This document shows, piece by piece, positions 2,517 to 37,248 of a DNA stretch of 42,066 nt. How positions within the stretch are numbered: the first letter of the stretch is position 1; each line of letters begins with the position of its first letter. Both the position numbers and the translations under genes were made by a program. This DNA is from a virus (Duplodnaviria; Heunggongvirae; Uroviricota; Caudoviricetes): positions 1 through 42,066 of IMG/VR virus record IMGVR_UViG_2579778919_000006, one strand, 5' to 3'. The notes beneath the pieces are model-generated. The model did no database searches and was not told the DNA's origin. It was given only the letters and a program-made list of their open reading frames with translations.

Positions 2517-3026
2517 AACAACTCCTAAATTTAGACAACATGAAGCCCGGAGAGGTATATAACCATCACCAGAAATAATTTCTGAATTGGTTTTTAATAC
2601 ATGTTGGGCAACGCCAGTGTTGGCATAGCTATAGTTGTATCAAATGCCATTGACCACCCACCCAAATAATAATTGCCGACTACTTTATTCCTTTCCGCTA
2701 TGACATTCCAACCTGTCATTACAATTCCTTTATACCTAATATTTCCGTAACCACCAACGTGTCGACAGTTAGCCCCGGTATAAACAATCTGGCAAAATTC
2801 ATCACCAATATTCAGGTTCGCATTGGCGATATTTATTGTCCCATCAAAAATGAATGGCTTCGTGCAAGTAAGAAGACGTTTGCGTTGACGATTGGTTTAT
2901 TCAATCCATCAACTAAAATACCATGTAAACGAATTGCCATGAGTTGTGCCCTTATATAAGATCGGGGTTTACATCTTAAATTATATCCCTATATAGTTGT
3001 TACACACAAACATAAAGGAGTTCGAA

Positions 3027-3305
3027 ATGAAGACTTTAATCTGCGCCATTATCCTTTCTATGACTGCTACTTTTGCTTATGCGACTGGCCCTTCCGGTGG
3101 TACTGGTGGTCCAGGTAATAGTGGCGCTGGTGGCTCATCATTAGGTGGGCATACCGGTGGAGTAAGTAACATTGAGCACCAGACTGTCATCTATGAAGGC
3201 ACTACCGCTGGTAAAGCTAAAGCTGAGTGGATGAAAGGTAAAAAAGTCAAACCTGATTGCTCACCAGCTATGAACCGTGTTGGTTGGTCCGAAGGTTGCA
3301 AATAA
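3027..3305 (+). CDS. small secreted glycine-rich protein (moron)
   Basis: AAGGAG Shine-Dalgarno 7 nt before ATG; signal-peptide-like N-terminus MKTLICAIILSMTATFAYA; Gly/Ser-rich middle; two C-terminal Cys; opposite strand to flanking tail genes. Confidence 0.45.
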   Translation: MKTLICAIILSMTATFAYATGPSGGTGGPGNSGAGGSSLGGHTGGVSNIEHQTVIYEGTTAGKAKAEWMKGKKVKPDCSPAMNRVGWSEGCK

Positions 3306-3307
3306 TT

Positions 3308-3334
3308 AAATAAAGGGCCATAAGGCCCTTTATT
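3308..3334. terminator. bidirectional intrinsic terminator
   Basis: perfect 8-bp stem aaagggcc-ataa-ggcccttt with an A-run on one side and a T-run on the other; sits between convergent J and the secreted-protein gene. Confidence 0.6.
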
Positions 3335-6300
3335 TTATGAGTAAGTAAACGATCCAGAACCTCTTGTTACAATCATTGTTGGACTTCTTAACCATCTATT
3401 AGTAGCACCCTCCTTAAATACGATTTTTGCAGTTACAGTTTCCGCAGTAACACCTTTAAAAGTGGCCATAACTGTACCAGACGTGGACAACATGCCGCCT
3501 TCCGTATTACGAACGGATGTGCCTGCGAATGCGCTTTTAGTAACACCATTCACGGTAATTTCCACCCCTAGTAACATCCCTGGATATTTAGGAACACCAG
3601 AAAGGTTAGCCATGACTGTGATGGTCTTAGTTGTATTAGCCGTATCCTTATAAGTGATTGTACGTGTCATATCGTACGTGCCACCTTCGCCGTATAAATC
3701 GTCAGCAACACCCATGTTGCATACATCACCAATAAAACTAGTAGCTTCTACAGTCCCTTTGAACTTACCGCTTGTTGCTTGTATCTCACCAGTAAATCTA
3801 CCGTCACTAGCATATACTACACCTCTGACGGTCACATTGTTGAATTCAGCATCTCCAGCTTTATTCAACTTCCAACCAGCAGAACCAGCTGCATAGTTGT
3901 TGGACTGGATGTAATTGCCGATTTTGGCGTTCTCAATGGTGCCGTCCTGGATGAAACTGGCCCGGATGAATGTCTGCCCGTTCTGGATCACGAACGGCAA
4001 AGCCACGCTGTTTCCGGCTGCCGTGGTGACGGCGAAGCGGTCAGCCAGGAAGATAACCTGCGACTGCATGCCGGATGGCGTATTCTCCACGCCGATCCCC
4101 ATCCCCGCGGCGTAATACTGACCGTTGCTGGAAACGCCAACCTTGATGTTATACATCGCGCTGAGGTCGCCATTAACGTTGGCTATCGCCTGAGCATTAG
4201 TGGTGATGGCTGAGGTATGCCCGTTCACCGTCGCCGTGATGCTGTTTACCTGCGTGGCCATAGCCTGCTGGTAATCGGAGAACGTCTGGTTCAGGCTGTT
4301 GATGGATGCCTTGTTGCTGTTAACGTCCGTCTGCAGGCTCAGCAGCGAGCGCGCCGTTGCCTCCCTGTCGTTGACAATCACCTCATCAATACGGTCCAGA
4401 TTCGCGCTGTTGCCGGCGACCGATGCAGACAACGTTTTACGCGCGGCTACCTGCGCCAGGTTGCCCTGAATAATTGCGATAGCAGAGTTCTTCACCCCGC
4501 CCGTCATGCCGTCCATAGACACGCTGATGCTGTCTATTCGCTGGCCCAGTGCGGTATCAGCAGTCGCAACAGTCTGCTCAAGCTCTGAGAGAGAAGACGA
4601 CACATCACCGACCGTGCTCGAAAGCTCATTAACACTGGTCTGAACCTGCCCAATGTCCTGCGCGTTTTTTGCGATTTCCTGCGCCTGGAGCTCAAGTTCA
4701 TCGTTGGCCTGTTTGATGTCGTCAGCCATGCCAGCAATTTTTTCGTTGCTGTCCACCGCGTTCTCGATCAGGTCTTTGAACGTATCGGAGTCTTTCATGT
4801 CCTCCAGGATTGCATCGGTGATATCGGATACATCGATGCTGGCCTGCCCGCGCACAAAGTCTGTATACCCTGATTCGTTTCCGCTGCGGTCCACCAGCTG
4901 CGCGCGGTACCAGAAAATTTGCCCAGCCTTTAGGCCCATCTGCTGATATTTGCGCTGCGGGTAAGGCACATCGGCCAGCAGCATGGCATCGTCTTCAGTA
5001 CCGGTCAGGCTGTACTGAATTTCAGTCTTCAGCGTGTCGTCGGTATTCGCCTGGAATCTCCAGTTCAGCTCGATACCGAACACCACGTTTTCAGAGGCGA
5101 TAAAGCCAACCGGCTTCGGTGGATTGCCCACTTTACCCGTCAGCGTTTTCTCTTCTGAATAGCCCCATCCGGATGAAATTTCTGCGGCATTGATTGCGCG
5201 CACCCGCACCAGGTAGCGCCCGGCATAAATCCCCGGGACGTCGAATGACGTGGTGGAGGTGCGCGGCACGTTAACCCAGTTCCCGTCGTTGCGGCGCCAT
5301 TGCGCTTCATAGGCGATAGCGTTCTGCGCCTGGTCCCAGCTCACGCGCATTGTTTCGACGCTGATATTTTGCTGAACCACGGAAAACGAGCTGATCACGA
5401 TATTCGCAGGCGGCGACTGGTTGCCCGGCGGGATCACGCTCACCGGCCGTTGGTCAATGATGGCTCCGGTATCGATACGGGCATATTTATCCGGGTCGTG
5501 CCATGCGCCGGTAATCGAGAAAGTGCCATCATTGTTATCGGAAACGCTGACAACACGATACTGCTGCGCGTAAAGCTCGTCAGATTCAACCACCCAAACA
5601 GCTTCGGCCTGTGGCGTCTCACTGTATGCCGTGGTGACTGTGACTGATTCCCCGTTCACGGCCTGAATGGTCCTGCTCTGCGACGCTCCGGAAGGCAGGT
5701 TGAGAATAAGGCGATCACCTGGTGCTGCATCAGCTACGCGGTCAAGTTTGATAACGCGACCGTTAACGGCGCTGATGCGGCCGCCCATAACCTTTCCGGA
5801 AAGCAGCTCGTCTGCCACGGCGATGATGTAGCCCGGCTGCGGAATGTTTCCGTCCAGCCCGACATCAAACGAAACAACGCGATCCTTGTTATTGGTGAGA
5901 ATACCCCAGCGCCCCTTTCGGTTCGCCTCTGACTGCCTGGTGCAGCCGATGGCTGTCATTTCCAGCTGATTGAAGCCGTACCGCGCCACCAGCGCCTGCT
6001 CAAATACCGGCTCCATCGCGTCGGCATAAGCGTTACCCGGGTCTGACCATGAAACCAGCGCTGTGGTGTAGCGGCTTTTCGTGGTGCTGCTCGAATAGGT
6101 GAAGCGACCGCCAACAACGTTAGCGCGCGTATAGCTGTAATCAACATCGCGCGGCATGTCAGCCAGGGCCACAATCTGATCCCCGCCCCAGTAGGTCATG
6201 CCACGGAAGATAGCGGCAAAATCACGCAGGACTGTGTAGGCGTCGTTCCGGTCCTGAATGTACACGTTGCAGGTATAGCGTGGTTCTGTACCGTTGCCCC

Positions 6301-21853: not shown

Positions 21854-22056
21854 ACGTAAAACCCTGCTGGCCCCCGGCGTCGTGATGTGGTGCCAACCTG
21901 AGATTCAAGGTCAGTAATATATTTTTTGAGATCGCTGACTGAAGTGGCTGTAAATTCCACTCTTCGACCGTCTTTCTGTACCGTCGCCACGCGCTTTCCC
22001 ATCATCAGGTCATGTAACGCAGCGCGCGCGGCATCCAGTTCAGTCTGTGTTGCCAT
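21850..22056 (-). CDS. W: head-tail joining protein W
   Basis: 68 aa, gpW-like, between A and B. Confidence 0.85.
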
Positions 22057-23978
22057 TATTCATCTCCAGATAATGCCCGCGCGTAATCCGCCAGGGTCTT
22101 GTTATTGTTACGGCTGCCTTCTTCCTCCAGCAGGCTGGCCAGAAGTGAATCAAGATTTAGCTGCCAGCGGGATATGCTTATACGCAGCGCCGCCAGTGCA
22201 TAAACAAAGCAATCGAGCGCCTCATTTCGTCGTTTTTTGCTGTCCCAGACGATCTTTTTCTTTCCGTCTACCCATTTTTCCACCTGCTCTTCAGCTGTTA
22301 GTTGTTGGGCCTCTGTTAGATCGTAGATTTCTGGGTTATTCGGGAAATGAACCGCTCCCGCCAGCGGCTCGTCTCTTTGCGCCACCAGCGTGAAACGGTT
22401 ATAAATCTGCTCTTTTGCGGTGTCTGTTCCTACCTCTGTGAGGTAAACACCATTCTTGTTACGCTTGCGTGGCATGTTCGCCACTGGCTTTCCATAAACC
22501 GACGCCCCCTTTATAGGGATCACACGAAACAGACCGTGTTTTTTTGAGCGGTTGTAGACGATGGTGGGATCAATGCCGCCAATATCCCAGCAAGTGCGGG
22601 ATATAACCATTTCGAGACCGTTCTGGCGCTTATACGTCCTGTTGATCGCTTCATCAACTCGAGCGAGAGTCGACTCATCATCATGACGACCCATAATGAT
22701 AATTTTGTCGATAAGCCAGCTTTCCTCTCCCGGCCCCCATCCCCAAACACGCATTTCGTAACGGTCAAGCTGGGAGTCAATACCCGCTGTCAGATATGCC
22801 ACTCGCTCCGGCACAGACGCTTCAAAGTGCTCTTTTCGTTCCGCTAAAACTTCAGCATCGGGTCGTTCACCTATTTTCGGTTCCCACGTTTCGCCCAGGG
22901 TCGTGTTAACGAAAGTTTTTCGCTTACCCGTATCACCTTTTGTTTTTATCCAGTCCTTGACGATCTGCACCCAGGTTGTGAACGGGCTATATGCGGTCCA
23001 GATGTGGAATGTAACGCTGTCAGGAGGTTCAATTTCGGTACCGGATGAAGAAAACCAGTTAAGGCCGTCTCGTGTCCAGATACCTGTTTCATCACAAATA
23101 TACCTGGCCTCCAGAAATTCCAGCTCCTGTTGTTTAATCACACAGGCATTGTGTTCACAGAGGTAGTAAACGCTGGCAGGTTCTCCCGGAGACCATTTGA
23201 AGCCAAATGGTGTCTCTTTATCACCGAATTTCAGATACTGCTCTTCCCCACAGTGTGGGCATGGAACATGGAACCGAAGAAAATGTTCAGACTCCTTAGC
23301 AGCTCTTTCTATCTGGCACGTACCTTTGACTTTCGGTGTAGATCCGCGAATGGATTTCGGCCATACAGAACCCTCAATACGCTTATCACCCAGAAAGGTG
23401 GGAGAACCTTCTTTCTCGATGTCATCATCGAAAGCGGCGAGCTCGTCGTAGCCAGCCACATCAACTGATTTTTCACGGTAGTTTTTTGCAGCCTTACCGC
23501 CCAGGCACCAGAAACCACGACCATTCGAGAAACGCTTCATGCTCAGCGTATTGTCCCGATGTTTTTTACCGTACCAGGGAGCAAGCGCCAGCAACGTCGG
23601 AATATCACGAATGGTCGGTTCTACATGAGACTTCATGAAGTTTTCAGCATCACCGTCGGTTGGTAACCATATTAGGGAGTTACGCTGTTTATGTTGGATG
23701 AAATATGCGTAAACGCCGAGCAACATTTTTGAGTAGCCGACACGAGCCGATTTAACGACATTCACCTCGCGAATATAGTCATTACCCATCGCATTCATAA
23801 TTGCACGCTGAAATGGCAGTGTTTCCCAGCGCCCTTCCTGGTAGGCAGACTCTTTCGGGAGATAATAATTCTCATCTGCCCATTCAACTGCTGTTTGCGG
23901 TTGCGGCCGGTACAGCGAACGTAACCCCGCCCGCGCAGAGTGCTGCAGCCCCTTAACCTGACTGTTCGATATATTCAC
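22056..23978 (-). CDS. A: terminase large subunit A
   Basis: 640 aa starting [11 protein letters not shown], near-collinear with lambda gpA as I recall it. Confidence 0.95.
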
Positions 23979-26162: not shown

Positions 26163-26678
26163 CTATTGACGCTCGCTCTCTATTTGACGAATTCCAGCGA
26201 AATTGTTATTGCCCTTTTCAATCACGGCCAGCAGCGGCTTAATCCAGAGCACAGCCTGGCAGTACGTTATTGAGCCGGCGGCAGCGGTACTATCATCGGC
26301 TGCGTCAGGTCCGTCGGTATCGGCGTGCATTGCGCTGGAACGTAAACGGTACGCGTATTCGAGCAGCCCACCAGCAATGTCAGCAGGAACAGGCAGATCA
26401 CAGGTTTTTTCACGGCGGAGAATCTCCCGGTATTCGATTACAGTTTCTTCGGTGCTGGTGTCGATCAGGGAGTTTAGCCTGTTGGCATGTTCTGCAACCT
26501 GATTGAATCGATTGAAGTTGAATGCCTGGGTGGCGATCACCTGCCCCTGCATAGAGTTGTCACTTCGCAGAACGTCGTTATCGCTCTGAAGGCGACTGGC
26601 GTTGGAGCAACTCTTAGCGAGAGCGACCGAAAGGACAGCAATAACAACAACGCCTATAAGACCCGGATTAATTTTCAT
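26163..26678 (-). CDS. Rz-like inner-membrane spanin
   Basis: N-terminal transmembrane segment INPGLIGVVVIAVLSVALA then a helical periplasmic part; start overlaps the endolysin stop; an embedded Rz1-like ORF was not resolved. Confidence 0.6.
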   Translation of the reverse strand: MKINPGLIGVVVIAVLSVALAKSCSNASRLQSDNDVLRSDNSMQGQVIATQAFNFNRFNQVAEHANRLNSLIDTSTEETVIEYREILRREKTCDLPVPADIAGGLLEYAYRLRSSAMHADTDGPDAADDSTAAAGSITYCQAVLWIKPLLAVIEKGNNNFAGIRQIESERQ

Positions 26679-27214
26679 TGGTCTAACCCCCAGCACGCCA
26701 GCGCGCTTTCCTGGTCCCGTCGCTCAACCTGACCATAGCAGCCATTCTTCTGGCCTTTGGTCAGGCGGCAATCGCGGCCACCGTCTTTAATCCACCAGCG
26801 GATAGCTTCACAGGCTCCTTTCCGGTCACCGGCATTGATTCGCTGGTAGAAGGTCGATGGATAGCATTTACCTGGACCAATGTTGTACGGGCAGAAGGAC
26901 GCAATGCCTACCTTTTGTGGCGCTGTCAGTGGAACCTTGATATTCCTATCGACCCATACAAGCGCTTTGTCACGCTCAATCGCGTTCACCTTCTTACATT
27001 GCGCTTCGGTAGCAGTCATGCCTTTTACGACACGCTTGCCGTCGATAACTGTTACGCCATGGCATAGTGACCAGACGCCACCGGGATCCATCACAGCAAC
27101 GAGCGCATTGCCTTCCTTCTCACTGATGAACTGGTCAAACAGCACAGGAGCTGAAGCACCAGCGGCGATCAGGGATAGCATAGCTGCGCTTAGTTTTGCT
27201 CTGATCGATGCCAT
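26675..27214 (-). CDS. SAR endolysin (lysozyme)
   Basis: hydrophobic N-terminal SAR-like segment LSAAMLSLIAAGASAPVL then a lysozyme-like domain; immediately downstream of the holin. Confidence 0.8.
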   Translation of the reverse strand: MASIRAKLSAAMLSLIAAGASAPVLFDQFISEKEGNALVAVMDPGGVWSLCHGVTVIDGKRVVKGMTATEAQCKKVNAIERDKALVWVDRNIKVPLTAPQKVGIASFCPYNIGPGKCYPSTFYQRINAGDRKGACEAIRWWIKDGGRDCRLTKGQKNGCYGQVERRDQESALACWGLDQ

Positions 27215-27215
27215 G

Positions 27216-27464
27216 TTAGTTATCCTGTGGTGGCGCGGTGATGTAGCCCTTCTTTAGGGCCTTCTCGTATGCCTTGGTCTGGCGTCTTTTGAAGTAAAGG
27301 TTGGTCAGGTATGTGGCGATGCCGATAAGAAATCCGCCAATCACTGCAACCTTGTTCCAGTCGAGGTCGTGCAACCATTGCAAAATGCCGCCTCCACAAA
27401 TAAGACTGCCGGACACGCAATACGAGACTGCGGATGCAATTTTGTCAGGCATATATCGGATCAT
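27216..27464 (-). CDS. class II holin (pinholin-like) with dual-start motif
   Basis: GAGGAG Shine-Dalgarno before MIRYM; two transmembrane segments; ILQWL...YLTNLYFK resembles the phage 21 S protein as I recall it. Confidence 0.75.
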   Translation of the reverse strand: MIRYMPDKIASAVSYCVSGSLICGGGILQWLHDLDWNKVAVIGGFLIGIATYLTNLYFKRRQTKAYEKALKKGYITAPPQDN

Positions 27465-27563
27465 CTCTATCTCCTCGCGTAATGGCGGGAGCTGTGTGTA
27501 AGGGGTCAGGCCCTCGGGACGATTTAACAAGCAGTCATGTCGATGATGGTTCCCGGAGCCTGA

Positions 27564-27594
27564 AATAAAAAAAGCCCGCTTTTGATAGCGGGCT
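27564..27594 (-). terminator. intrinsic terminator in the late leader
   Basis: 7-bp stem agcccgc/gcgggct followed on the minus strand by a T-run. Confidence 0.6.
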
Positions 27595-27743
27595 AATGAG
27601 TTGACTATTTGTAAGGTAGGTGTGAGTAAGACTTATGCTCAGAGGTGAAGCTGTATCGGCTGATTCACTATCGGTCCAGGAGAACCACCGGGCATTCAGT
27701 TACTTCCCACAACTCAAAGCGTAGCAGCAGTTTGCAAAACCAT

Positions 27744-27771
27744 AAAAAAAGGCCTGCGTTTAATGGCAGGC
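27744..27771 (-). terminator. intrinsic terminator in the late leader
   Basis: 6-bp stem gcctgc/gcaggc followed on the minus strand by T7. Confidence 0.55.
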
Positions 27772-27988
27772 TCTCAAGGAATTTGAAACTTGTATTGTAG
27801 TTGTCATGGTGCCGGGTGCCTCCCGGTGACTCTACTCCAGCCAGCAAAGTCGCGCGCATACCTGCAGATAGCAGTTGGCTGGAACGCCCTTTCGCTTAGA
27901 AAGGATTCACCACAGAAATAAATTACGCCGAACTTATTCCTGCAGTCAATGAGATTAGCCATTGCTTCCTGATGGTTGTCTTACAAAT

Positions 27989-28011
27989 GAAAAAACCTCG
28001 CCGAAGCGAGG
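27989..28011 (-). terminator. intrinsic terminator in the late leader
   Basis: 6-bp stem cctcgc-cgaa-gcgagg followed on the minus strand by T6. Confidence 0.55.
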
Positions 28012-28208
28012 CTATTTGAATTTGAGGCACCTCACCCAACAAACCACCCGAGGTTAACTGGATTTTAACGAGATGCTTTTGGATGAGCGCTGAACCCAAA
28101 GGTCAGCATTTTCACACAGCAATTTTGCAAAAAGCAGCGCCCATTCAAAACTAGGTCGCTTTTCAGTCACTCCGGGGACCCCATCATCGCAGACCGAAAA
28201 GCTTAAAC

Positions 28209-28283
<75 letters not shown>

Positions 28284-28286
28284 ATA

Positions 28287-28362
<76 letters not shown>

Positions 28363-28364
28363 AG

Positions 28365-28438
28365 TGGTCCGCCACCGGAGCCTCGAACCCCGTACCACAA
28401 CACCTGGGTTGCCGCTCTTCCCGATGAGCTAGTGGCGG
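28365..28438 (-). tRNA. tRNA-like element, anticodon unresolved (possible degenerate tRNA)
   Basis: acceptor, D and T arms fold (T-loop TTCGAGG, 3' ACCA) but the best anticodon-arm pairing GCAAC/GTTGT leaves a 6-nt loop. Confidence 0.45.
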
Positions 28439-28440
28439 TC

Positions 28441-28517
28441 TGGTGGCCCTTGCTGGACTTGAACCAGCGACCGGGCGATTATGAGTCGCACGCTCTAACC
28501 AACTGAGCTAAAGGGCC
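28441..28517 (-). tRNA. tRNA with CAU anticodon (Met or Ile2-lysidine type)
   Basis: reverse complement GGCCCTTTAGCTCAGTTGGTTAGAGC...; anticodon loop CTCATAA; T-arm GGTTCAAGTCC; 3' CCA. Confidence 0.75.
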
Positions 28518-28642
28518 GGGAGCAAGAAGATACATAGGTAAAACTACCCTTGCAATAATATGGTTTTATGATGAAAAACAATCAGGGAAATGGTTAAATA
28601 TCAAGCGGCAGTGCTTTCAATCTAACCAGAGCAAGGGAAGAT

Positions 28643-29593
28643 ATGATTTTTATTAAAAACGGCAATAGCTTTGATCGCATTAATGACTGGACAGAAATTC
28701 AAGCTCGGGAAAGCTATCATTCCAGGCTGGAACTGACCGATCAACAATTATCCGATGTTTTTGGTTATTATGATGACCTCCCGGAAGAAATCCCGTGTGG
28801 CAAGTCGAGCTGTCGAACAGGCCATAAAAAAGGGTTTCTTGTTCTTACTGAGGATGGTCTGGAGACGAACCTGGGTCACGTTTGCGGTACAAAAGTCTTC
28901 GGTATAGCATTTGAAAACCTAGCCACTGACCTCGAGAAAAAGGCAAATTTCCACAGATATCTAACAGCCCTCAAGGAAGCCAAGAAAAATATTTTTCTCC
29001 ATTACCAAGCAAAAGCCAAAATCGAAGCCAGTGAACCATCATTAGAATGGGTCGCACATAAAATTTTAGATTTAAGAGATTCTAAAGTAGTTGGCCGAGC
29101 CGGGAGTCAAGCTTTGAAACGTATGGCTGCTTTAGGAGATGGAAAAGTTTTACTTCCCAGAAGGAAAACCAAGGAAGAAATGCAGTTGTCGAATGTTATG
29201 TCTCAAAAACCTTCCGATAACGAAGATGAAAATGCTGAGGATAATGTAAAACCACAATTCATCGACGAAGTAATTGGCATTGTTCGTAATCCTGAATGCC
29301 TCCTCAACGATTATAACATAGCGCTAATCTTCGAAAGAGATATTCGCCTTGTGCTGGAAGAACTCAATAATTGCAATCCTGACGATATTCCTGAGAAGAA
29401 GGTCATGTCATTAGGATTAAAAGTTTCCAGGCTGAATGAAAGATTTCAATTCCTTCAGGATCGTTTTGAGAAAGCATGTATATATCTCACAAAGGAAAAC
29501 TTTAAACCTTTAAATCATCAACTACATTTGAAAAAATCAATTAGCAATAAAGATAAGGCCCTTTTCAGTTCTTTCGTTAACTCGCTGCCATAA
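28643..29593 (+). CDS. hypothetical 316-aa protein, AT-rich cargo gene antisense in the late leader
   Basis: ATG-initiated ORF, by eye clearly more A+T-rich than the flanks; Lys/Glu-rich helical protein with a Cys/His cluster (PCGKSSCRTGH...HVCG); hairpin terminator at its 3' end. Confidence 0.5.
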   Translation: MIFIKNGNSFDRINDWTEIQARESYHSRLELTDQQLSDVFGYYDDLPEEIPCGKSSCRTGHKKGFLVLTEDGLETNLGHVCGTKVFGIAFENLATDLEKKANFHRYLTALKEAKKNIFLHYQAKAKIEASEPSLEWVAHKILDLRDSKVVGRAGSQALKRMAALGDGKVLLPRRKTKEEMQLSNVMSQKPSDNEDENAEDNVKPQFIDEVIGIVRNPECLLNDYNIALIFERDIRLVLEELNNCNPDDIPEKKVMSLGLKVSRLNERFQFLQDRFEKACIYLTKENFKPLNHQLHLKKSISNKDKALFSSFVNSLP

Positions 29594-29619
29594 AAAAGCC
29601 CCGCAAGGGGCTTATTGTT
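29592..29619. terminator. bidirectional hairpin terminator
   Basis: stem agcccc-gcaa-ggggct; strong T-run on the minus strand (candidate tR'), weaker T-rich tail on the plus strand. Confidence 0.6.
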
Positions 29620-29701
29620 GAAATCTTTCAGGCGTTACTCCGCATGATTAGAAGCATACACGACAACTTCGGACAAAATCAAGCCTTATGTCGTAATAAT
29701 G

Positions 29702-30538
29702 CTAAATTTCGTCACCTTCTTCGCCTAAACTGGTTGCAGATTGAAATTCTCTTGCGGCGTTTCCCTCCTCCTGCTGACAAATGCTTACCAGCGCCTCAAG
29801 AAACGGTTTCCAGTTGCGAGTCCATGTTCTGACGTGCAGATCCGGAACGCGCTTCAGTATCACTTTATAGGCTGCGGTAGACGGCACCGCAGAAAATCCA
29901 TTTCCGCTGCAGCGCTCGCAGGTTTTAAACACCGGCGCGCCGCGCTCGCTTGTGGCCTTGCGGTCTAGAACCTCGCCTTTACCGCCACAGCGACAACGGG
30001 CGCTTATCGTTCCCTTGCCATCACAGGCATCACAAACTGCTGGCACAATCTCCGTGACCTCTGTCCATTTCTCCCAGTCTGACGGGCGAACAGCACGGGA
30101 GCGGCTGGCCCAGTATGGAGCTTTACCCCATGGGTACGAAACCTTGCGGGTAATCTGTTCGCGGGTTGTTCGTCCGGTACCACTGCAGCTGTGACACGTC
30201 ACGCTTGTAGCCGCCGAACGTGAATAATCAGCAAAGGCAAATTGTGCCAACATCTGCATGCACCATCCGAACTGCCCACCAGCTGCTTTGCGAACATTCT
30301 TCGGTGCGACATCCATCGCATATCGCGCCAGCGCCTGAACTGCGAGCTGTTCATCCGTTTTGCTGATTCCCGCTTTACCGAAGAACGCCGCCAGTCCGAA
30401 GCGCGCACGGCTGCTGGTGGTGCCAATTGCCGCCATTACATCTGTTCCTGTAAGGCGGTCCGGAGAGGTTCCTTTCACGTCGTCGCTGATGTGCACACCC
30501 TGAGGGCTAAAGTGTTTTAGTGATGCTTCCAACTTCAT
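29702..30538 (-). CDS. putative late-gene antiterminator (Q-position protein) with four CxxCxGxG zinc-finger repeats
   Basis: position between replication genes and the late/lysis region; CHSCSGTG, CDACDGKG, CRCGGKG, CERCSGNG repeats; start re-set from GTG to ATG with ATGA coupling to the upstream ORF; family assignment uncertain. Confidence 0.45.
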   Translation of the reverse strand: MKLEASLKHFSPQGVHISDDVKGTSPDRLTGTDVMAAIGTTSSRARFGLAAFFGKAGISKTDEQLAVQALARYAMDVAPKNVRKAAGGQFGWCMQMLAQFAFADYSRSAATSVTCHSCSGTGRTTREQITRKVSYPWGKAPYWASRSRAVRPSDWEKWTEVTEIVPAVCDACDGKGTISARCRCGGKGEVLDRKATSERGAPVFKTCERCSGNGFSAVPSTAAYKVILKRVPDLHVRTWTRNWKPFLEALVSICQQEEGNAAREFQSATSLGEEGDEI

Positions 30539-30846
30539 TGAATGGTTTCCCACTTTTCAGCAGTGCCAAACCAGCCAGGGTGCGCCCACTGGACATCAGT
30601 CACTTTATCGCCGTTACCCCACAGCGTCAGAACACGCATAGCAACGTAGTGCATAAGGATTTTTTCATGCTCTCGCCACTCATCATCAGGAGTGTCTTCA
30701 ACAAATTCAGCGATGGCGTCAGCAATAAGACCGAAACACTCAGGAAAATCACTATGACCGATTGCGATGTCTTTTGCCGTTTCCTGAAGCTCCATAAAAC
30801 GCTGCTTGGTAAAGAGATACGACATTTCTCTAATTAGGCGATCCAT
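30535..30846 (-). CDS. hypothetical protein
   Basis: about 103 aa from the ATG for MDRLIREM; coupled between primase-helicase and the Q-like gene. Confidence 0.4.
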   Translation of the reverse strand: MDRLIREMSYLFTKQRFMELQETAKDIAIGHSDFPECFGLIADAIAEFVEDTPDDEWREHEKILMHYVAMRVLTLWGNGDKVTDVQWAHPGWFGTAEKWETIQ

Positions 30847-30847
30847 T

Positions 30848-32719
30848 TTAATACCTCGTTGCGTTGGTGGCTTCCCACTCAATATCAAGTTCACTTTGCT
30901 GTTTGCCGGCCAAGTAATTGAAGGGCCCTTTATCACCCTCGATAAACTGGTGTGAGCGGGAATCAAAGTTAGCCCCTATGTCTCCGATCCAGCCTTCCCC
31001 TTCACGTTGTTTCAACAGGCGGATCATCGAAGCGGGCATTTGGATAGCAGTCTGTTCGTCCTTATCAAGGCTCTCATACCCCATTCTTTCAGCTTTGCGC
31101 TGCGCCAGTTCGCGCGGGATATTACGCCAGACCGCCATAACGTTGTCGGGCATGTCAGTTAAAGCGCCAGTGCCTTTAACATCCATTTTCCCTGTTGGTG
31201 CAGCTTCGTTTGTTTTTCTGGCATGCGTTACCAGCAGAACATGGCAGTTGTGCTCGTTTTTAAAGTCGCAGAGGGTATCGATAAATTCTTTTTGTCCACC
31301 GTAGTCCTCCTCATCGAGTCCACATTTTGCCAAGTTGTCGATAACGAAAAGATCGATTCCATAGCGGCGTCTGGCATAGGCAAATATTTCCAACAGTCGA
31401 TCGGCCTTGGCTGTTCCGGTGAGTTTGAACACCCAAAGACGATCAGAAAACCACTCGTTAGTCATGATGATTTCAGTACGTTCTGGGTTTTTTCTACAAA
31501 TGGTTTGCCGGGTAAGACGAGCCAACATTTTCCCAGGCTTAAGCTCCAGCGAGGCAATGCATACCCGGACTCCCTGGCTCATGGCATTGACGGCGATATG
31601 TCCCACCAGCTCGGTTTTTCCGTGGCCGTTTACTCCGTTAACCAGCGTCAGCTCTCCGGCGCGGAATTTGAAATTACTGTTCAGCGAATCCCACGGGCTG
31701 GAAAATAATCCAACATCTCGATGCTCGAATGCATCCAGTGTTTCCTGAAGGAGATCACCCGCAGAGCAGAGTTCATCAGGGTCGAAGAATTTAGCGGTCC
31801 CCAAGTAGTGCCAGATTTCATCCTCGCTCATCCCGGAGGTCAGACATTCATTGATATCTTTGTGCGGCAGCTCTACCAGGCGGCAACGATGCTCCCCCAG
31901 GCGACGAGCAATTTCTTTTGCGGCTTCGCGCCCTACATCATCGTTATCGAGGCTTAACCAAATTTCTTCGAATCGGTCGAGGTTGTGATACTCGTATTCG
32001 ATCCATTGCTGTTTGGCCCCTTTTCCACCGCCGAACGGTACCGATAGAGCACTGATACCGAATTGCGAGTAGGTCATACAGTCAATCTCTCCTTCGCAAA
32101 GCACAACAGCGCGAGCTTTCGCGTCCATAGCCTGCCAGCCAAACAGACATGGCTCGCAATCAGCTTCAGCCATGATCAACTTTTTGCCATTTGGTCGTTC
32201 AGTGCCGATTCGCTTTACCTGCAAAAGCTCACCGTTGCGAAGATACGGAAACGCCACTGCCGGAATTTCGCGGTTTTCATCGTGGTACCAGACGACTGCG
32301 TCCGAAACACGGAATTGATCAGCTGTCTCTCGGGTGATGCCACGGGAAGAGAGGTAGTCGTAGCAATGGCTCGCCTTTTTAACGCCTTTTTTGGTTGGCC
32401 GTGAGAAGGTTTTTTTCTTCGCCTCGAAGTGGTTATCGTCGTCCTTCAGCCCAAGGAACTCTTTCGCTTCCCGCATAGCGTCGTGCAGCTGGCAGTTACG
32501 CACCAGCACCCAAAGATCAAGCAGGTCTCCGCTGTCGCCGCTTGCAAAATCTGCCCAAGTCTTCTTACCACCGAGATTAATTTTCAGGCTCTTACCGGCA
32601 TCACCATTGGTATTACCAGCGCACCACTCCTTGCCCTCGAGGTGTCCTCGTGGAAGCAGGTATTTCGCAACTCTTTCGGCGTTGTCCCACAATTTTTCAG
32701 ATAACTCAGCAGGGGTCAT
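30848..32719 (-). CDS. bifunctional DNA primase / DnaB-like helicase
   Basis: Toprim-like central region (LCEGEIDCMTY, DNDDVGREAA) and C-terminal P-loop NTPase (GVNGHGKT, LFVIDNL); start re-set to the ATG with GGAG Shine-Dalgarno. Confidence 0.8.
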   Translation of the reverse strand: MTPAELSEKLWDNAERVAKYLLPRGHLEGKEWCAGNTNGDAGKSLKINLGGKKTWADFASGDSGDLLDLWVLVRNCQLHDAMREAKEFLGLKDDDNHFEAKKKTFSRPTKKGVKKASHCYDYLSSRGITRETADQFRVSDAVVWYHDENREIPAVAFPYLRNGELLQVKRIGTERPNGKKLIMAEADCEPCLFGWQAMDAKARAVVLCEGEIDCMTYSQFGISALSVPFGGGKGAKQQWIEYEYHNLDRFEEIWLSLDNDDVGREAAKEIARRLGEHRCRLVELPHKDINECLTSGMSEDEIWHYLGTAKFFDPDELCSAGDLLQETLDAFEHRDVGLFSSPWDSLNSNFKFRAGELTLVNGVNGHGKTELVGHIAVNAMSQGVRVCIASLELKPGKMLARLTRQTICRKNPERTEIIMTNEWFSDRLWVFKLTGTAKADRLLEIFAYARRRYGIDLFVIDNLAKCGLDEEDYGGQKEFIDTLCDFKNEHNCHVLLVTHARKTNEAAPTGKMDVKGTGALTDMPDNVMAVWRNIPRELAQRKAERMGYESLDKDEQTAIQMPASMIRLLKQREGEGWIGDIGANFDSRSHQFIEGDKGPFNYLAGKQQSELDIEWEATNATRY

Positions 32720-32822
32720 CACACACTCCGTAAATCGAATTTTATAAAGCACATAGTCACGAATTCCTCACGCAAAAAGCCGCGGTTATAGCCAGCAACC
32801 AGTAGACGTTTGAGGATTCTTT

Positions 32823-33833
32823 TCATGGGCGGTTAGCTCCGCGCTTCATGCGGTCAATGGCTGCCTGGCTGATAAATACCTCAGCCGAACCGTCACTTGG
32901 TTTTGCGAACCAGGAAGCACCTGTCCCACCGATGGCGTTTGCGCTTGCGGATATCTGAGGAGCTCCATTTGGTTTTTCATCGTTCCAGCGCTCTCCGTTC
33001 AGGTATGACGCTGGCAGGAGTTTGTCGAACCCCATTTGCTGTGTTTTCACCCGGAGGCTGATATCTTCAGCCAGCATAACGGCGAAGTTCTCAGGCGTAC
33101 CTCGGTTCGCTTTTTTCCAGTCGCGATATTTGGTCCTGAACGCTGACTTAGCCTTGACCTTGGCATCCTTCCTCAGTCCAGCCCCCCAAAAAATATTTTC
33201 GAAAGCGGCATCGACTGGATCTGGGCTCTCAGCATCATCAGATTTTGAATCAGGTTTCCCCTGTGCAGGTTGACCTTTCAACTCGTCAGGTTTATCGCCA
33301 TCGGTCCGATTCGAATCGGACAAATTAGTTTTATTCCTTTCCTCTTCCCTTCCCTTCCTTTCCTTTCCGTCAGTGAGTTCTTCGTGAGCATTCAGTGAGT
33401 CCTCAGTGTTAGCTCCATTGCTTGTATGTGAATCATGAGTTTGTTTTTCATCATTACTCACTGAGCCATCCATGTAATTCGGTGCTGGTTTCCGTGAGTT
33501 ATCAGCAACGTCTTCAGGAGTAGGTATTGTTGTTGCGGATGGTCGGTTAATTTTCTGGTGTTTAGAAAAACCATCAATGTGAATATATTCAACACCACTC
33601 ACTGAATACTCACTGATTAACCCAGCCTGGCTAAGTTCTTTAATTAACGGCTCGCAGTCGATCATGTCCGCAGGGAAAATCTGCATCTTGATACGCTTCG
33701 GGGAGCGCACCAGATTGCCTTTGTCGTCGGCAAAATTGAACATGCCGATAAACATTAGGCGCGCCTCAAATGAGCACTCGACAATCTTCTCATCAGTCCA
33801 GAACTCAGGTTTAATTGTTCTAATGCGTGCCAT
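32823..33833 (-). CDS. putative replication initiator (O-position protein)
   Basis: position upstream of primase-helicase; N-terminal MARIRTIKPEFW domain; acidic low-complexity middle whose DNA carries iteron-like repeats. Confidence 0.45.
   Translation of the reverse strand: MARIRTIKPEFWTDEKIVECSFEARLMFIGMFNFADDKGNLVRSPKRIKMQIFPADMIDCEPLIKELSQAGLISEYSVSGVEYIHIDGFSKHQKINRPSATTIPTPEDVADNSRKPAPNYMDGSVSNDEKQTHDSHTSNGANTEDSLNAHEELTDGKERKGREEERNKTNLSDSNRTDGDKPDELKGQPAQGKPDSKSDDAESPDPVDAAFENIFWGAGLRKDAKVKAKSAFRTKYRDWKKANRGTPENFAVMLAEDISLRVKTQQMGFDKLLPASYLNGERWNDEKPNGAPQISASANAIGGTGASWFAKPSDGSAEVFISQAAIDRMKRGANRP
33335..33616. repeat. iteron-like repeats (ACTCACTGA / TCAGTGAGT) plus a polypyrimidine tract; candidate replication origin
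   Basis: copies at about 33369, 33391, 33456, 33596 and 33608; CT-rich tract at 33335-33367; all inside the putative initiator gene, as lambda ori lies inside O. Confidence 0.5.
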
Positions 33834-34187
33834 CTATCAGCCCTCCATCAGCACAAATAACCTCACTTACATCAGGCTTTGACTGGAATTTGGCATCAAC
33901 TAGGGAAGCCTTGCGCGCATTGCAGGAATCACACAAACATTGCATGTTGTCTGGGTGGTGAGCACCACCGTTACGTCGCGATACAATGTGATCTGCGACC
34001 AATTTAATGCGGTCTTGACTGCCACAATGACGGCATTTGAAACCGTCGCGCCAAAGAACAAATTCGCGTAGTGCGCGATGGCAAGGTACGCGCATTTTCA
34101 GGCGACCTTTGATCGTGGGCACTTTCCATTTGTTGCCGTTCTGGTCTAACCAAAACTCAGACGGCACCTTTCCGTAATCACGCATTT
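33820..34187 (-). CDS. HNH endonuclease
   Basis: CRHCGS...DHIVSRRNGGAHHPDNMQCLCDSCNARK motif; start re-set to the ATG for MRDYGKV. Confidence 0.75.
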
Positions 34188-34399
34188 TGCGCCTCCGAGA
34201 CCTTCGTAAAATATTGTTGGAACTTCCAGACAGGCTGCATACATTCATGCGGATAATTCTGCCTGGTGAAGTACACCTGCTGTTTATCCCGATTCCAGCC
34301 GGTGACATGCACAATCACACCGCGCGGATCGCGATAATCGATATCCAATGGCTTAACTTGGTTTTCGGTAGTGATTGAGTGCGACATATCACACCTCAC
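34178..34399 (-). CDS. hypothetical small protein in the cII position
   Basis: 73 aa; ATGA start/stop overlap with the Cro-like gene. Confidence 0.4.
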   Translation of the reverse strand: MRCDMSHSITTENQVKPLDIDYRDPRGVIVHVTGWNRDKQQVYFTRQNYPHECMQPVWKFQQYFTKVSEAQNA

Positions 34400-34623
34400 A
34401 CCTCATTTCCCGGATGAGGGAATGTGTCTGGAAGGTCTGGGCGGATCTGGTAGGCTTTAACTTCGCCACCAGTAGCTTTAACAATGGACATGACATGATC
34501 AGCCTTAACCCGGCTACCATTAAGCCAGCGAAAAACAGCTGGTTGAGTAACCCCACAAGCCCTTGCTAATGCAGCTTGTCCGCCGAGAATATCGATAGCT
34601 CTCTTGACATGTTGATTGATCAT
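34396..34623 (-). CDS. cro: Cro-like HTH regulator
   Basis: 75 aa from the ATG for MINQHVKRAIDILGGQAALARACGVTQPAVFRWL; divergent from the cI-like gene. Confidence 0.7.
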   Translation of the reverse strand: MINQHVKRAIDILGGQAALARACGVTQPAVFRWLNGSRVKADHVMSIVKATGGEVKAYQIRPDLPDTFPHPGNEV

Positions 34624-34732
34624 AAAAATACCAAAAGTTATTGAACACAAGGAAAGAGTATAACCTTGAATAACTTTATGCAATAACTTATCGTATTTGC
34701 CACTTAATAACTTTTTGTATAGGCTTATTGGT
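34624..34732. promoter_or_regulatory. immunity-region operator/promoter with repeated AATAACTT motifs
   Basis: three direct copies of AATAACTT (34669, 34682, 34706) and one inverted copy (34636-34643) between divergent cro-like and cI-like starts. Confidence 0.5.
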
Positions 34733-35431
34733 ATGAACACATTCTCAGATCGTCTTCAAAAAGCGATGGTTGACGCTGGCCTTACACAGGCAGAATTAGC
34801 GATGAAAGTTGGGGTTTCGCAACCAGCTATCTGGCGCCTTGTTGCAGGCAAAACCAACACAACACGTAAGCTGGTTGAGATTGCGAATGCGCTGGGTGTA
34901 AGCCCTGAATGGCTTTCTACCGGGAAAAATCATGTACCCCACAGACAGGGGTATGTGATAGAGACTATGCCCGACAGGGAAGTAAAGGATAACGCTGGCA
35001 TATTCAGGGTCGAAGTTCTTGACCTTTCGGTGAGTGCTGGGCCTGGCACGTTTATGCTTTCAGAATATGTTGAGGTTTTACATGCTATAGAGTTCACTAC
35101 TGAACACGCAAAATCCCTTTTTGGAAATCGTAGTGAAGATGTCGTAAAAGTAATGACAGTCAATGGCGACAGCATGGCCAGCACATTCAATTCCGGTGAT
35201 CGTGTCTTCGTTGACATTTCCGTCCGACACTTTCTAACAGATGGTGTATATGTCTTTGTTTTTGGTAAAACATTTCACCTAAAACGACTCCAGATGCAGG
35301 GAAACAGGCTAGCAGTGTTATCGGATAACCCAGCATATGAGAAATGGTATATCACGGAAGAAAACCAGGATGACCTTTACGTGATGGGTAAAGCCATAAT
35401 GCACGAATCAATCAATTACAATAGGCTCTAA
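34733..35431 (+). CDS. cI: CI-like repressor (HTH plus S24 LexA-like peptidase domain)
   Basis: N-terminal HTH (LTQAELAMKVGVSQPAIWRL), Ala-Gly in the linker (SAGPG), GDSM serine motif and KR lysine motif. Confidence 0.85.
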   Translation: MNTFSDRLQKAMVDAGLTQAELAMKVGVSQPAIWRLVAGKTNTTRKLVEIANALGVSPEWLSTGKNHVPHRQGYVIETMPDREVKDNAGIFRVEVLDLSVSAGPGTFMLSEYVEVLHAIEFTTEHAKSLFGNRSEDVVKVMTVNGDSMASTFNSGDRVFVDISVRHFLTDGVYVFVFGKTFHLKRLQMQGNRLAVLSDNPAYEKWYITEENQDDLYVMGKAIMHESINYNRL

Positions 35432-35452
35432 CCTTCAACACCACACCTTTTG

Positions 35453-35478
35453 AAGCCGCTGAAAAGCGGCTTTTTCTT
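35453..35478 (+). terminator. intrinsic terminator after cI
   Basis: perfect 7-bp stem agccgct-gaaa-agcggct followed by TTTTTCTTT. Confidence 0.7.
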
Positions 35479-35559
35479 TATCAATAGCTGTATACATGCA
35501 GTAAAACAATAAAATTTAATCAGAAAAATCAATGCATTAAACCAAATTGCAAAATAAAA

Positions 35560-35592
35560 ATAAGTTTTGTTATTGCAATAAGTTATTGCGTG
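35560..35592. promoter_or_regulatory. operator-like palindrome (putative OL)
   Basis: perfect palindrome TTATTGCAATAA (35570-35581) and AAGTTATTG, the 9-mer also found in the cro/cI intergenic region. Confidence 0.4.
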
Positions 35593-35632
35593 ACTTAAAG
35601 TTCATTCATCGGCAAACAACGGAGCCAATGAA

Positions 35633-36064
35633 ATGAATACTCAAATCACCGTAGCCAAAACCATCGGCAAAAGAATATTAAATCAAAGATCTTCGCTTCG
35701 ACTCTCTCAGGATTTTTTGGCTGATCATCTTGGTTTAACAACCGAAACCATTAACAACTGGGAAACGGAAAAAACAGTTCCGTTTGCTGACCAGTTAATC
35801 CAATTGGCTAACATTCTTCATTCTGATGTTCTGTGGCTCATTTCAGGCAACGAGCAGTGCGGTGAATTTACAGAACCAACAAGTATTATAACGTCCAATC
35901 AACTTAACTCATGGTCTGCTGATATTGGCAATTGCAGAATGGCTTTATCTAACGCTATGGATTGCATGCCTCCGGAATTGTCGGCTATCGGTACACTAAC
36001 TATCGTTTATGAAAAATTAGACGACTTGCAAGAAACCATCTGCAAGCAAGCCGACAAAATTTAA
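35633..36064 (+). CDS. XRE-family HTH protein
   Basis: HTH segment LSQDFLADHLGLTTETINNWE; C-terminal 60 aa unassigned and contains Cys-Gly (NEQCGEF); by eye A+T-rich. Confidence 0.6.
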   Translation: MNTQITVAKTIGKRILNQRSSLRLSQDFLADHLGLTTETINNWETEKTVPFADQLIQLANILHSDVLWLISGNEQCGEFTEPTSIITSNQLNSWSADIGNCRMALSNAMDCMPPELSAIGTLTIVYEKLDDLQETICKQADKI

Positions 36065-36124
36065 AATTAATTAACATTATTTAATTAACACCTTTCTTGG
36101 TGGGGACAAACTCACCCTTAGGAA

Positions 36125-36517
36125 ATGAAAATGCAAAATTCCGTCGCAATTAATCAGCCAGTTAAAACACCTCAAATGCTGTTCGGATCTGACAACATTA
36201 ATGACTTTGGCAACCGCGTTCAAAGCTGCCGGATGGAAGGTGATTCAATGCAGCCGACCATAGAACCATGTGAGGTTGTGGCTTTCGTTGATTGCGGTGG
36301 ACGTGCGCTTACCTCTGGCATTTATGTTTACACAATGGATGCTTTTGGTCGCCCATGCCTTTTCATTAAGAGAATCGAGCCATTAGCTGATGGCTCATTA
36401 AAAATCATCTCAGATAACCATCATTACGAAACTTTCACCCTCAACACCAATGAACAGAAAGAAATCAAAATTCACGGTCGGGTAGTCGCTTCTTTGGCTG
36501 TGAGGCGCTTCGTATGA
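36125..36517 (+). CDS. stand-alone S24 (LexA/UmuD-like) peptidase domain protein
   Basis: MEGDSMQPTI serine motif and FIKRI lysine motif, no HTH domain; AGGAAA Shine-Dalgarno. Confidence 0.6.
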   Translation: MKMQNSVAINQPVKTPQMLFGSDNINDFGNRVQSCRMEGDSMQPTIEPCEVVAFVDCGGRALTSGIYVYTMDAFGRPCLFIKRIEPLADGSLKIISDNHHYETFTLNTNEQKEIKIHGRVVASLAVRRFV

Positions 36518-36623
36518 CTTTCATCAAGGATAAGACGGCATACAGAACAGCATGCCTTTATGCAGCCTGCGGTTACGAGGTAATCGCTCGTCTTTATCTT
36601 AAAAAAGCATATGGTCGTTAATT

Positions 36624-36848
36624 ATGGGTGTTTTAAAAAGACAGGATATTCAGGAAGTGAATATCAAAGCGGAGAAGTTGTCAGGCTTGACGCAAGCATT
36701 ATTTGAATATCACGACAAACTGGACCATTTCCAACTTAAAACTATTTGCTCTCTTGTTTATGACATTGCTGGAGAAATTAATGATTGGACCGAAAAAGAA
36801 GAGGAAATTGTTATGAGCTTAGAGGAGGAGGTTCGCCGCAATGGATAA
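36624..36848 (+). CDS. hypothetical small protein
   Basis: 74-aa ORF in the rightward early operon; no family recognised. Confidence 0.35.
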   Translation: MGVLKRQDIQEVNIKAEKLSGLTQALFEYHDKLDHFQLKTICSLVYDIAGEINDWTEKEEEIVMSLEEEVRRNG

Positions 36849-37248
36849 ATTAATCGAGACATATCGCCGCCGAATTTTAAAGGCAGCGTTATTACGCCAC
36901 CAGCGTAAAACGGGCAGTAACTGCCTTGTTATTAAGCTCAATAAAGGCGGTATTAACACGGTCGAGTTAACAGAGATTCTTCTCGATGGATTATTACGAA
37001 AATTCGAAAGGCTCGCGATCAGTGAGTACGGAAATGTCGAAGGTGTAAAAGCTATTAAGGGGATTTACAGCAGCTCTGTTGATGTTAATGGCAGCGGTGA
37101 ATTCCTCACAAATAGCGGGAAGGAGTTAATCGACGAGCTCATTTCTGAGCTGGTTGAGTTCGTCAAAAAACAAAAAGTGGAGGCTCCGAAAACGGAGGGT
37201 CATGAAATGGAGGAATCTGATGGCTCTTACAGCGATACGAATTCCTGA
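36841..37248 (+). CDS. hypothetical protein
   Basis: 135-aa ORF; overlapping start with the previous gene; no family recognised. Confidence 0.4.
   Translation: MDKLIETYRRRILKAALLRHQRKTGSNCLVIKLNKGGINTVELTEILLDGLLRKFERLAISEYGNVEGVKAIKGIYSSSVDVNGSGEFLTNSGKELIDELISELVEFVKKQKVEAPKTEGHEMEESDGSYSDTNS

Follow-up and report, generated by a model that had tools for sequence, protein, structure and literature searches.

What is a gene doing between the antiterminator gene Q and the late-leader tRNA genes of a lambdoid Escherichia coli prophage, in the orientation opposite to the late operon? The question is raised by IMG/VR virus record IMGVR_UViG_2579778919_000006, the 42,066 nucleotides of which were analysed in full and are referred to here as the window, and concerns an open reading frame (ORF) for a protein of 316 amino acids at positions 28643..29593 of the plus strand. 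An earlier note, made from the letters alone, had placed an AT-rich orphan gene of this length within 28520-29630, antisense between a Q-like gene and the tRNA and lysis genes. The ORF was indeed found there, as the sole ORF of exactly 316 amino acids in the Q-to-tRNA gap.

The analyses presented here indicate that the gene is most likely self-contained cargo (a moron) of the prophage, encoding a putative zinc-binding protein. Its position and the neighbours of its relatives suggest, with about an even chance of being right, that the product is a stand-alone cytoplasmic protein that serves defence or inter-phage competition and is made in the lysogen. The features that point to defence are the defence-island neighbours of relatives, the low GC content, the patchy distribution, and the fast-evolving C-terminal part of the protein.

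A low-GC gene in an exchangeable slot

The rightward early and late operons of the window lie on the minus strand, and the 316-amino-acid gene is convergent with Q (29702-30553, minus strand), which was recognised by Pfam PF03589 (E=8.9e-54) and phrog_127. At its other side lies the late-leader tRNA cluster (28209-28517, minus strand), in which ARAGORN detected Gly, Thr, degenerate Leu-like, and Met/Ile-CAT tRNA genes, with Rfam matches for three of the four and RefSeq annotation as additional evidence. The tRNAs, the lysis genes, and the terminase gene are all located downstream of the 316-amino-acid gene on the minus strand. Windowed GC analysis bore out the AT-richness that had been judged by eye: the gene has a GC content of 0.391 versus 0.506 for the window, which is within the lowest 1.3% of all 951-nucleotide windows, and it is flanked by Q at 0.553 and the tRNA block at 0.576.

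The occupancy of the slot was compared among complete E. coli genomes, 37 out of 5426 of which encode the window's type of Q. Seven genomes have a Q that is at least 95% identical, and all seven carry the gene, intact in five and truncated in two; the intact gene is present in 5 of the 5426 genomes. Diverged Q modules contain a second allele (P0028-type; EC2001, M8, and Leclercia), the product of which is approximately 25% identical to the window protein, and in 2015C-3121, A41, and D53-1 the slot has no family member, with a methyltransferase remnant, small ORFs, or only tRNAs instead. The comparison with related prophages that had been proposed at the outset thus revealed a polymorphic slot, occupied by allele A, by allele B, by a decayed copy, or by no family gene. 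Because of these alleles, decayed copies, and empty slots, the gene is regarded as exchangeable and dispensable cargo at a hotspot. Two marks of a moron, namely a base composition unlike that of the flanks and presence or absence among related phages, were found.

One further copy of the P0028-type (55-58% identity) was observed between Q and stxA in the Stx2f phage phi467 (locus L004, LN997803.1, positions 5001-5875). It contains two frameshifts and is annotated as two hypothetical proteins, which reflects either a pseudogene or a sequencing error.

The gene appears to be equipped with expression signals of its own. A ribosome-binding site, AAGGGAAG, was read from the sequence at 28633-28640 (plus strand), 2 nucleotides 5' of the ATG. 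Upstream of it, positions 28571-28599 (plus strand) contain a candidate sigma-70 promoter, consisting of ATGAAA (28571-28576), a 17-nucleotide spacer, and TGgTTAAAT (TG at 28591-28592, hexamer at 28594-28599), which looks like an extended -10 promoter. This block is kept in loci L012, L015, L017, L002, L022, and L027, the proteins of which are 62-96% identical to that of the window, and it persists even in the lineages with a protein identity of only 62-67%; it is this conservation of the motif that argues for a promoter function. The notion of an unusually conserved 5' untranslated region was dropped, as its identity of 72% versus 68% for the coding sequence is unremarkable.

A widespread family with an invariant Cys/His core

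The expectation that the gene would be an orphan did not hold. The protein matches phrog_7003, a PHROG without function, with E=3.5e-118 and essentially from end to end (residues 1-315 versus profile positions 1-308 of 309). Fifteen close clusters were found in enterobacteria, and a profile search of 1.84 billion representative proteins yielded 568 clusters, counted at 50% identity (E<=1e-3), mostly of approximately 300 amino acids and matched end to end. A second, word-indexed homologue search with the deep profile added one protein only, and all sources label the 316-amino-acid protein and its relatives as 'hypothetical protein'. The initial remark that no family could be recognised was overtaken by the full-length phrog_7003 match and stood with respect to Pfam, NCBIfam, and the PDB. 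Searches of Pfam and NCBIfam with the protein gave no significant match, except for one insignificant CsxC hit, and no match was found in a Pfam scan of 70 relatives or of ten isolated N-terminal domains with E up to 10, and the PDB sequences yielded only chance-level hits, whether the query was the protein, the deep profile, or the domain profile. A literature search on phrog_7003, the RefSeq accession, and defence genes in the Q slot found no paper on this family.

The protein has a predicted mass of 36.2 kDa and a pI of 6.5, and its central segment (residues 91-166) is basic, with a pI of 9.5. Neither a signal peptide nor a membrane segment was found (the maximum hydropathy over 19 residues is 0.82), and the protein is therefore considered to be cytoplasmic. 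An AlphaFold model based on 70 sequences at approximately 20-30% identity reached a mean pLDDT of 95.1 and a pTM of 0.82, and superseded an earlier run with 16 close sequences in which residues 25-91 were poorly modelled. The modelled N-terminal domain is rich in beta-structure (strands 2-13, 36-43, 64-69, and 74-78, and a helix at 79-86), and is followed by long helices (90-165), a beta-hairpin formed by 168-174 and 206-213 with an acidic loop, and a C-terminal helical bundle (217-313). The protein had been described as Lys/Glu-rich and helical, which agrees with 30% charged residues and a helical content of two-thirds, but not with the beta-rich first ~90 residues. Taken together, the family is widespread and unannotated, and its confident predicted model is unlike any solved structure.

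The conserved part of the family is confined to a short region. The core CG(K/L)xxCxxxHxxG(F/Y)LV...ETN(I/L)GxxCG is encoded at 28796..28888 (plus strand; codons 52-82) and is modelled as a beta-hairpin plus helix. Residues Y43, C52, C57, G64, G78, C81, and G82 are invariant in the 70 sequences, with H61 and N76 conserved in at least 90%, and the window protein contains the family motif Y-x(6-8)-CGxx(x)Cxx(x)HxxG(Y/F)...TN(I/L)GxxCG. Mean pairwise identity amounts to 45% for residues 31-95 versus 20-24% for the rest of the protein. The Cys/His cluster that had been noticed as a possible zinc binder (PCGKSSCRTGH...GHVCG) is thus present, and C52, C57, H61, and C81 within it are conserved; H79 of 'HVCG', which had been included in that proposal, is not conserved across the wider family. 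Because those four residues are conserved and H79 is not, the former are the likely metal ligands, and C52/C57/H61/C81 likely constitute a putative zinc site.

A candidate late promoter and a probably shared terminator between Q and the gene

The proposal that the late promoter would lie just past Q, and that late transcription would run antisense over the gene, was supported by sequence comparison: the short interval between the two genes contains, on the minus strand, a promoter-like block as well as a terminator. The candidate late promoter PR' (29631..29682, minus strand) begins 20 nucleotides past the Q stop codon and comprises a -35 hexamer TTGATT (29682-29677), an 18-nucleotide spacer, and a -10 hexamer TATGCT (29658-29653), followed by TAATCATGCGG and TAACGCC. 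Downstream of it, at 29590..29613 on the minus strand, lies the hairpin AAGCCCC-TTGC-GGGGCTT followed by TTTTAT (stem-loop at 29596-29613), which is a candidate for the late-leader terminator tR'.

The PR' block and the hairpin are kept in nine loci with Q proteins that are 65-87% identical, irrespective of the cargo allele, and the hairpin stem displays compensatory changes across these diverged loci (AGCCCC/GGGGCT versus ACCCGC/GCGGGT). TAATCATGCGG and TAACGCC resemble the -10-like pause signals of lambdoid late promoters, and the AATCAT-G-rich element in particular is like the signal at which Q is loaded at lambda PR'. Moreover, the GenBank record of phi80, the Q protein of which is 40% identical to that of the window, has pR', the Q-binding site, and the terminator annotated in a matching layout. 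On basis of the nine-locus conservation, the phi80 layout, and the likeness to lambda PR', we infer that PR' and tR' are located at 29682-29590. Given such a PR'-like block and terminator in the interval that separates Q from the gene, late transcription should cross the gene in antisense direction before it reaches the tRNA and lysis genes.

The gene had been credited with its own hairpin terminator, and a G+C-rich hairpin does follow the stop codon immediately, but the hairpin is not simply that of the gene. It folds with -15 kcal/mol as the plus strand and with -12.7 kcal/mol as the minus strand. The long run of T is a minus-strand feature (GGGGCTTTTTTAT), and the terminator rule was passed by the minus strand alone, so that the hairpin is better read as the tR' of the late leader. 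The TAA stop codon of the gene (29591-29593) falls inside the A-run of the hairpin, and the two convergent transcripts would therefore share one terminator, which possibly acts in both directions and probably also ends the plus-strand transcript of the 316-amino-acid gene.

Genomic settings of the relatives

Family members were located with a local hidden Markov model (HMM) in 150 loci carrying a member; those on genome contigs were found with sub-alignment A3, and the close-family profile found none there. Four settings recur among these loci. In the setting of the window, the gene is convergent with a PF03589-type Q at a distance of 109-160 bp (637 bp in phi467); this was observed in 35 loci from E. 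coli, Leclercia, and related viral contigs, and the surrounding lysis and replication modules differ between carriers. In a second setting, the gene directly follows an S24 repressor-like gene of the same strand at a distance of 14-327 bp; this setting comprises 12 loci, found in Oceanisphaera, Pseudomonas, and viral contigs, and the member is full-length in each of them. The Oceanisphaera locus was recognised as an immunity switch because a divergent Cro gene is present. A third group of members lies elsewhere in immunity regions or within structural modules and is oriented against the surrounding operon, as exemplified by Klebsiella phage ST13-OXA48phi12.2, Serratia prophages, and a metagenomic phage. 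Finally, 69 loci belong to chromosomal islands and mobile elements of Beta- and Gammaproteobacteria, and most relatives occur in soil and water members of these classes. The family gene was found to be poorer in GC than the flanking sequence in 35 of 39 other loci (median difference, -0.07).

Among the immediate neighbours in the chromosomal islands and mobile elements no conserved partner gene was found. Matches to defence models within two genes of a family member include GajA (8e-236) and GajB (4e-243), a CBASS cyclase (7e-145) with capP, type IIG (E=0) and type I (5e-203) restriction enzymes, as well as a DRT reverse transcriptase, a TOTE primase, and several PADLOC candidate systems. In locus L043 the genes for a type ISP restriction enzyme and a Schlafen-like protein precede a distant member.

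A separate observation concerns the head module of a metagenomic phage (locus L034), in which an ORF of 109 amino acids with a weak Zn_ribbon_3 hit (5663-5992) is situated 8 bp upstream of a distant member, on the same strand, with both genes antisense to the module. It is the only hint of a possible partner gene.

Further features of the prophage and its relatives

Besides the genes discussed above, the minus strand of the window encodes the large terminase subunit (22056-23978), a lysozyme (26675-27214), a holin (27216-27530), a primase-helicase (30848-32752), and a Cro-type protein (34396-34740), and the plus strand encodes a cI-type repressor with helix-turn-helix (HTH) and Peptidase_S24 domains (34697-35431). 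Downstream of the tRNAs, the part of the late leader that precedes the holin gene (27531-28208) is otherwise unannotated and contains only small ORFs and an STnc100-like RNA. The latter is an Rfam match to the STnc100 small RNA family at 27740-27946 (minus strand), with 53.1 bits versus a gathering score of 47, and terminator-like hairpins were seen near it at 28013-27994, 27771-27752, and 27594-27573.

Two members of the tRNA cluster deserve comment. The fourth 'tRNA' at 28365-28438 (minus strand) has an undefined anticodon according to ARAGORN, has no Rfam match at the gathering score and no RefSeq annotation, and aligns to a tRNA-Leu at the equivalent place in locus L012, from which it differs by one additional base and a number of changes in the anticodon loop; possibly this tRNA is degenerate or unusual. 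The tRNA with a CAT anticodon at 28441-28517 (minus strand) is called Met by ARAGORN and tRNA-Ile by RefSeq in the identical FAM21845 locus, the latter call presumably being a reading as the lysidine-modified type.

Within the early rightward operon, an ORF for an HNH endonuclease (33820-34314, minus strand) is located between the Cro-type gene and the replication genes, and may be a free-standing homing-type gene. A second strong low-GC region (34571-37020, down to 0.373) surrounds the immunity switch and may be another cargo site; it contains the cI-type repressor gene, an HTH ORF (35633-36064) and a Peptidase_S24 ORF (36125-36517) that form a split second repressor-like pair, and an ORF for 135 amino acids without a family. 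A third low-GC stretch (2401-3780; 951-nucleotide windows below 0.42) covers the 3' end of a minus-strand ORF for 1314 amino acids and the sequence downstream of it. In E. coli FAM21845 (locus L001, 8381-9649) a second lysis cassette, with two holins and a GH19 hydrolase, is present upstream of Q and replaces the primase-helicase of the window, in a locus that is otherwise identical, which suggests a recombinant or tandem prophage.

Discussion

A defence or inter-phage competition protein of the lysogen, as the 316-amino-acid protein is read here, would be expressed as follows. In the lysogen the gene would be transcribed from its own promoter at 28571-28599, with the transcript ending at the hairpin that it has in common with the late leader. 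Upon induction, Q-modified RNA polymerase would start at PR' (29682-29653), pass tR', and cross the gene in antisense direction, which, by analogy with taiEcA of phi80, would damp expression of the gene and thereby spare the lytic growth of the phage. In other phages the family would reach the same on-in-lysogen logic by its place directly behind cI. With either wiring, behind cI or antisense behind PR'/tR', the gene is predicted to be expressed in the lysogen and shut down in the lytic phase, which is the logic of prophage immune genes. Thus, the earlier idea of a lysogen-expressed gene that is silenced on induction is supported by the architecture and by the lysogen-type positions of relatives, and its alternative of a conversion gene is made unlikely by the absence of a signal peptide or membrane segment from the protein and by the environmental origin of most of its relatives. 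As to the protein itself, the invariant N-terminal C-C-H-C beta domain might be a constant functional core and the fast-evolving helical two-thirds might set specificity; since no catalytic motif is detectable, binding of a phage component or nucleic acid would seem likelier than enzymatic action. In its widest form, to which we give somewhat less than an even chance, the proposal is that of a new and widespread single-protein immunity family with an unseen fold (a zinc-stabilised beta domain with variable helical bundles), which is switched on only in the lysogen by two independent wirings (co-transcription with cI, or an antisense position behind PR'/tR') and is also kept in bacterial defence islands.

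Several results speak against a defence function. PADLOC-DB v2.0.0 gave zero matches at E<=1 for the 316-amino-acid protein and only single scattered matches at E>1e-3 for the 70 relatives, Foldseek searches of the modelled structure versus the PDB and BFVD returned nothing at E<=1e-3, and no effector domain (nuclease, protease, NADase, or pore) was detectable. Many of the neighbours in chromosomal islands and mobile elements are plain mobile-element cargo, i.e., integrases, resolvases, Tn3 transposases, metal resistance genes, and chaperones. The defence genes, with strong matches, make up at least approximately 15 of 195 first and second neighbours when 52 genomic loci are pooled, a tally that comes without a matched background or a count per locus. 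Moreover, the frameshifted and truncated copies show that the gene is often dispensable, and its promoter consists of a conserved motif only, with a hexamer (TTAAAT) that lacks the A at position 2 and was not called by a consensus promoter scanner.

Among the alternatives, a factor that regulates or maintains the mobile element was considered, in the form of a zinc-finger nucleic-acid binder that tunes the lysis-lysogeny decision, late transcription, or host genes. It could reinforce repression, or convergent transcription could serve as a brake on a leaky PR', in line with the tight linkage of the family to two regulatory hubs (Q/PR' in 35 loci, cI in 12 to 20 loci), the conserved zinc domain that could bind DNA or RNA, the basic character of residues 91-166, and the convergent transcription that meets PR' within ~50 nucleotides. 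We nevertheless regard such a factor as unlikely: a core regulator is expected to be conserved in the phage group, and closely related Q modules lack the gene or contain decayed copies; members also reside in non-phage islands beside restriction, Gabija, and CBASS genes; no HTH or known DNA-binding family was detected by Pfam in the protein, the 70 relatives, or the N-terminal domains; and the common terminator should stop the transcript short of PR' or Q. An anti-defence or host-takeover protein, which would neutralise a bacterial immune system or a host factor, has a low probability in our view. The gene is phage-borne, fast-evolving, and non-enzymatic, with a fold unlike known ones, as is seen for many anti-defence proteins, and some members adjoin Gabija or CBASS genes. 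However, such genes are normally early and co-oriented with the early operons, whereas this family occupies lysogen-type positions, antisense to the late operon or with cI; residence in islands beside defence systems is typical of defence genes rather than of their inhibitors, and no structural match to solved inhibitors was found in the PDB.

A patchy distribution, low GC content, insertion between conserved genes in several phage modules, frequent degenerate copies, and two deeply divergent alleles at one site would also suit a selfish mobile gene that inserts into intergenic slots of phages and then decays, for example a free-standing homing-type nuclease with a zinc-stabilised beta-beta-alpha domain, to which the modelled beta-hairpin plus helix around the Cys/His site bears a likeness. 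Its probability is judged to be lower again. An HNH-type or beta-beta-alpha-metal nuclease was rejected, as no HNH, GIY-YIG, or other nuclease profile was matched, even with the N-terminal domain alone at E up to 10, and there is no conserved His at the end of strand 1 (residues 69-70), the position of the HNH catalytic base; the invariant polar residues appear to be nearly all taken by the metal site, and both the same-strand pairing with cI and the association with defence islands are unlike homing endonucleases. A role in lysogenic conversion or virulence, directed at the animal host or the cell surface and comparable to that of the Shiga toxin genes, is highly improbable. It would fit the stx slot, which is the Q-to-lysis interval, and the family member that adjoins stxA in the Stx2f phage phi467, but the copy in phi467 is frameshifted, most relatives are environmental, and the gene is antisense to the Q-driven transcript by which stx-type cargo is expressed. 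The hydropathy profile and the lack of a signal peptide moreover led us to reject a secreted or membrane-bound exclusion protein.

A defence role, if true, would mean that bacterial immunity makes use of a further protein fold and probably of a further mode of action, which may be one of binding since no effector domain is recognisable. The members behind cI in other phages would then provide a natural setting in which two regulatory answers to the autoimmunity problem can be compared. Moreover, the 568 clusters labelled 'hypothetical protein' are flagged for annotation, and the slot after the PF03589-type Q, which in phi467 neighbours stx2f, is a place to seek further cargo.

Comparison with known systems

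The closest parallel to the proposed wiring is taiEcA of phi80. This defence gene is placed antisense within the Q-dependent late operon, an arrangement termed a 'noncontiguous operon'; its product is made in the lysogen, and the protein level falls when Q is expressed (PMC11364771). Tha/Ith of Staphylococcus aureus prophages is a second case of prophage immune-gene logic (PMC11087260). The present gene resembles taiEcA in being antisense within a Q-dependent late operon, with PR' in our case deduced from the sequence, and in encoding what the sequence predicts to be a single, non-enzymatic cytoplasmic protein. It differs in that TaiEcA has 204 amino acids and is encoded past the lysis genes in phi80, whereas the gene in the window is located between Q and the tRNAs. 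The Tai systems of phi80 also have an adjacent, late-expressed counter-defence partner, AtiEcA. Homology with TaiEcA was rejected, with an hhalign probability of 0.1% against the family profile and phi80 absent from the tblastn matches. If the proposed reading of a lysogen-expressed immune gene is correct, the gene would be a second, independent example of a prophage immune gene that is silenced by Q-driven antisense transcription, after Tai of phi80.

BstA is a stand-alone prophage abortive-infection protein with self-immunity that occurs in diverse Gram-negative bacteria (PMC8585504). It shares with the present protein the requirement for a way to spare its own prophage on induction. BstA reportedly has approximately 300 amino acids and a gene next to the repressor locus, with the aba DNA element as the device that protects its own prophage; the self-sparing that is proposed here is antisense late transcription. 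Furthermore, the family has no KilA-N domain and no match to a PADLOC model, which should include BstA, according to Pfam and PADLOC searches with the protein and its 70 relatives.

In lambda, the exclusion genes rexA and rexB of cI-rexA-rexB lie directly behind the repressor gene and are co-transcribed with it in the lysogen. The 12 loci with a family member 14-327 bp behind an S24 (cI-type) repressor gene on the same strand are alike in this respect. Unlike rexAB, the family is a single gene without a membrane partner, and in the window it is located 5 kb from cI, at the Q slot; the RexA chain was not among the listed matches of the PDB fold search, which are weak and generic.

The stx genes occupy the matching interval downstream of PR'/tR' and beside the late-leader tRNAs, and in phi467 this interval holds both a family member and stx2f. 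However, stx has the orientation of the late operon and is activated by Q, whereas the 316-amino-acid gene is antisense and would be switched down. In comparison with phrog_7003, the family found here is far wider, with 568 clusters, and includes non-phage loci. The architecture is therefore of a known kind, that of a prophage cargo gene in a noncontiguous operon, and the protein is new.

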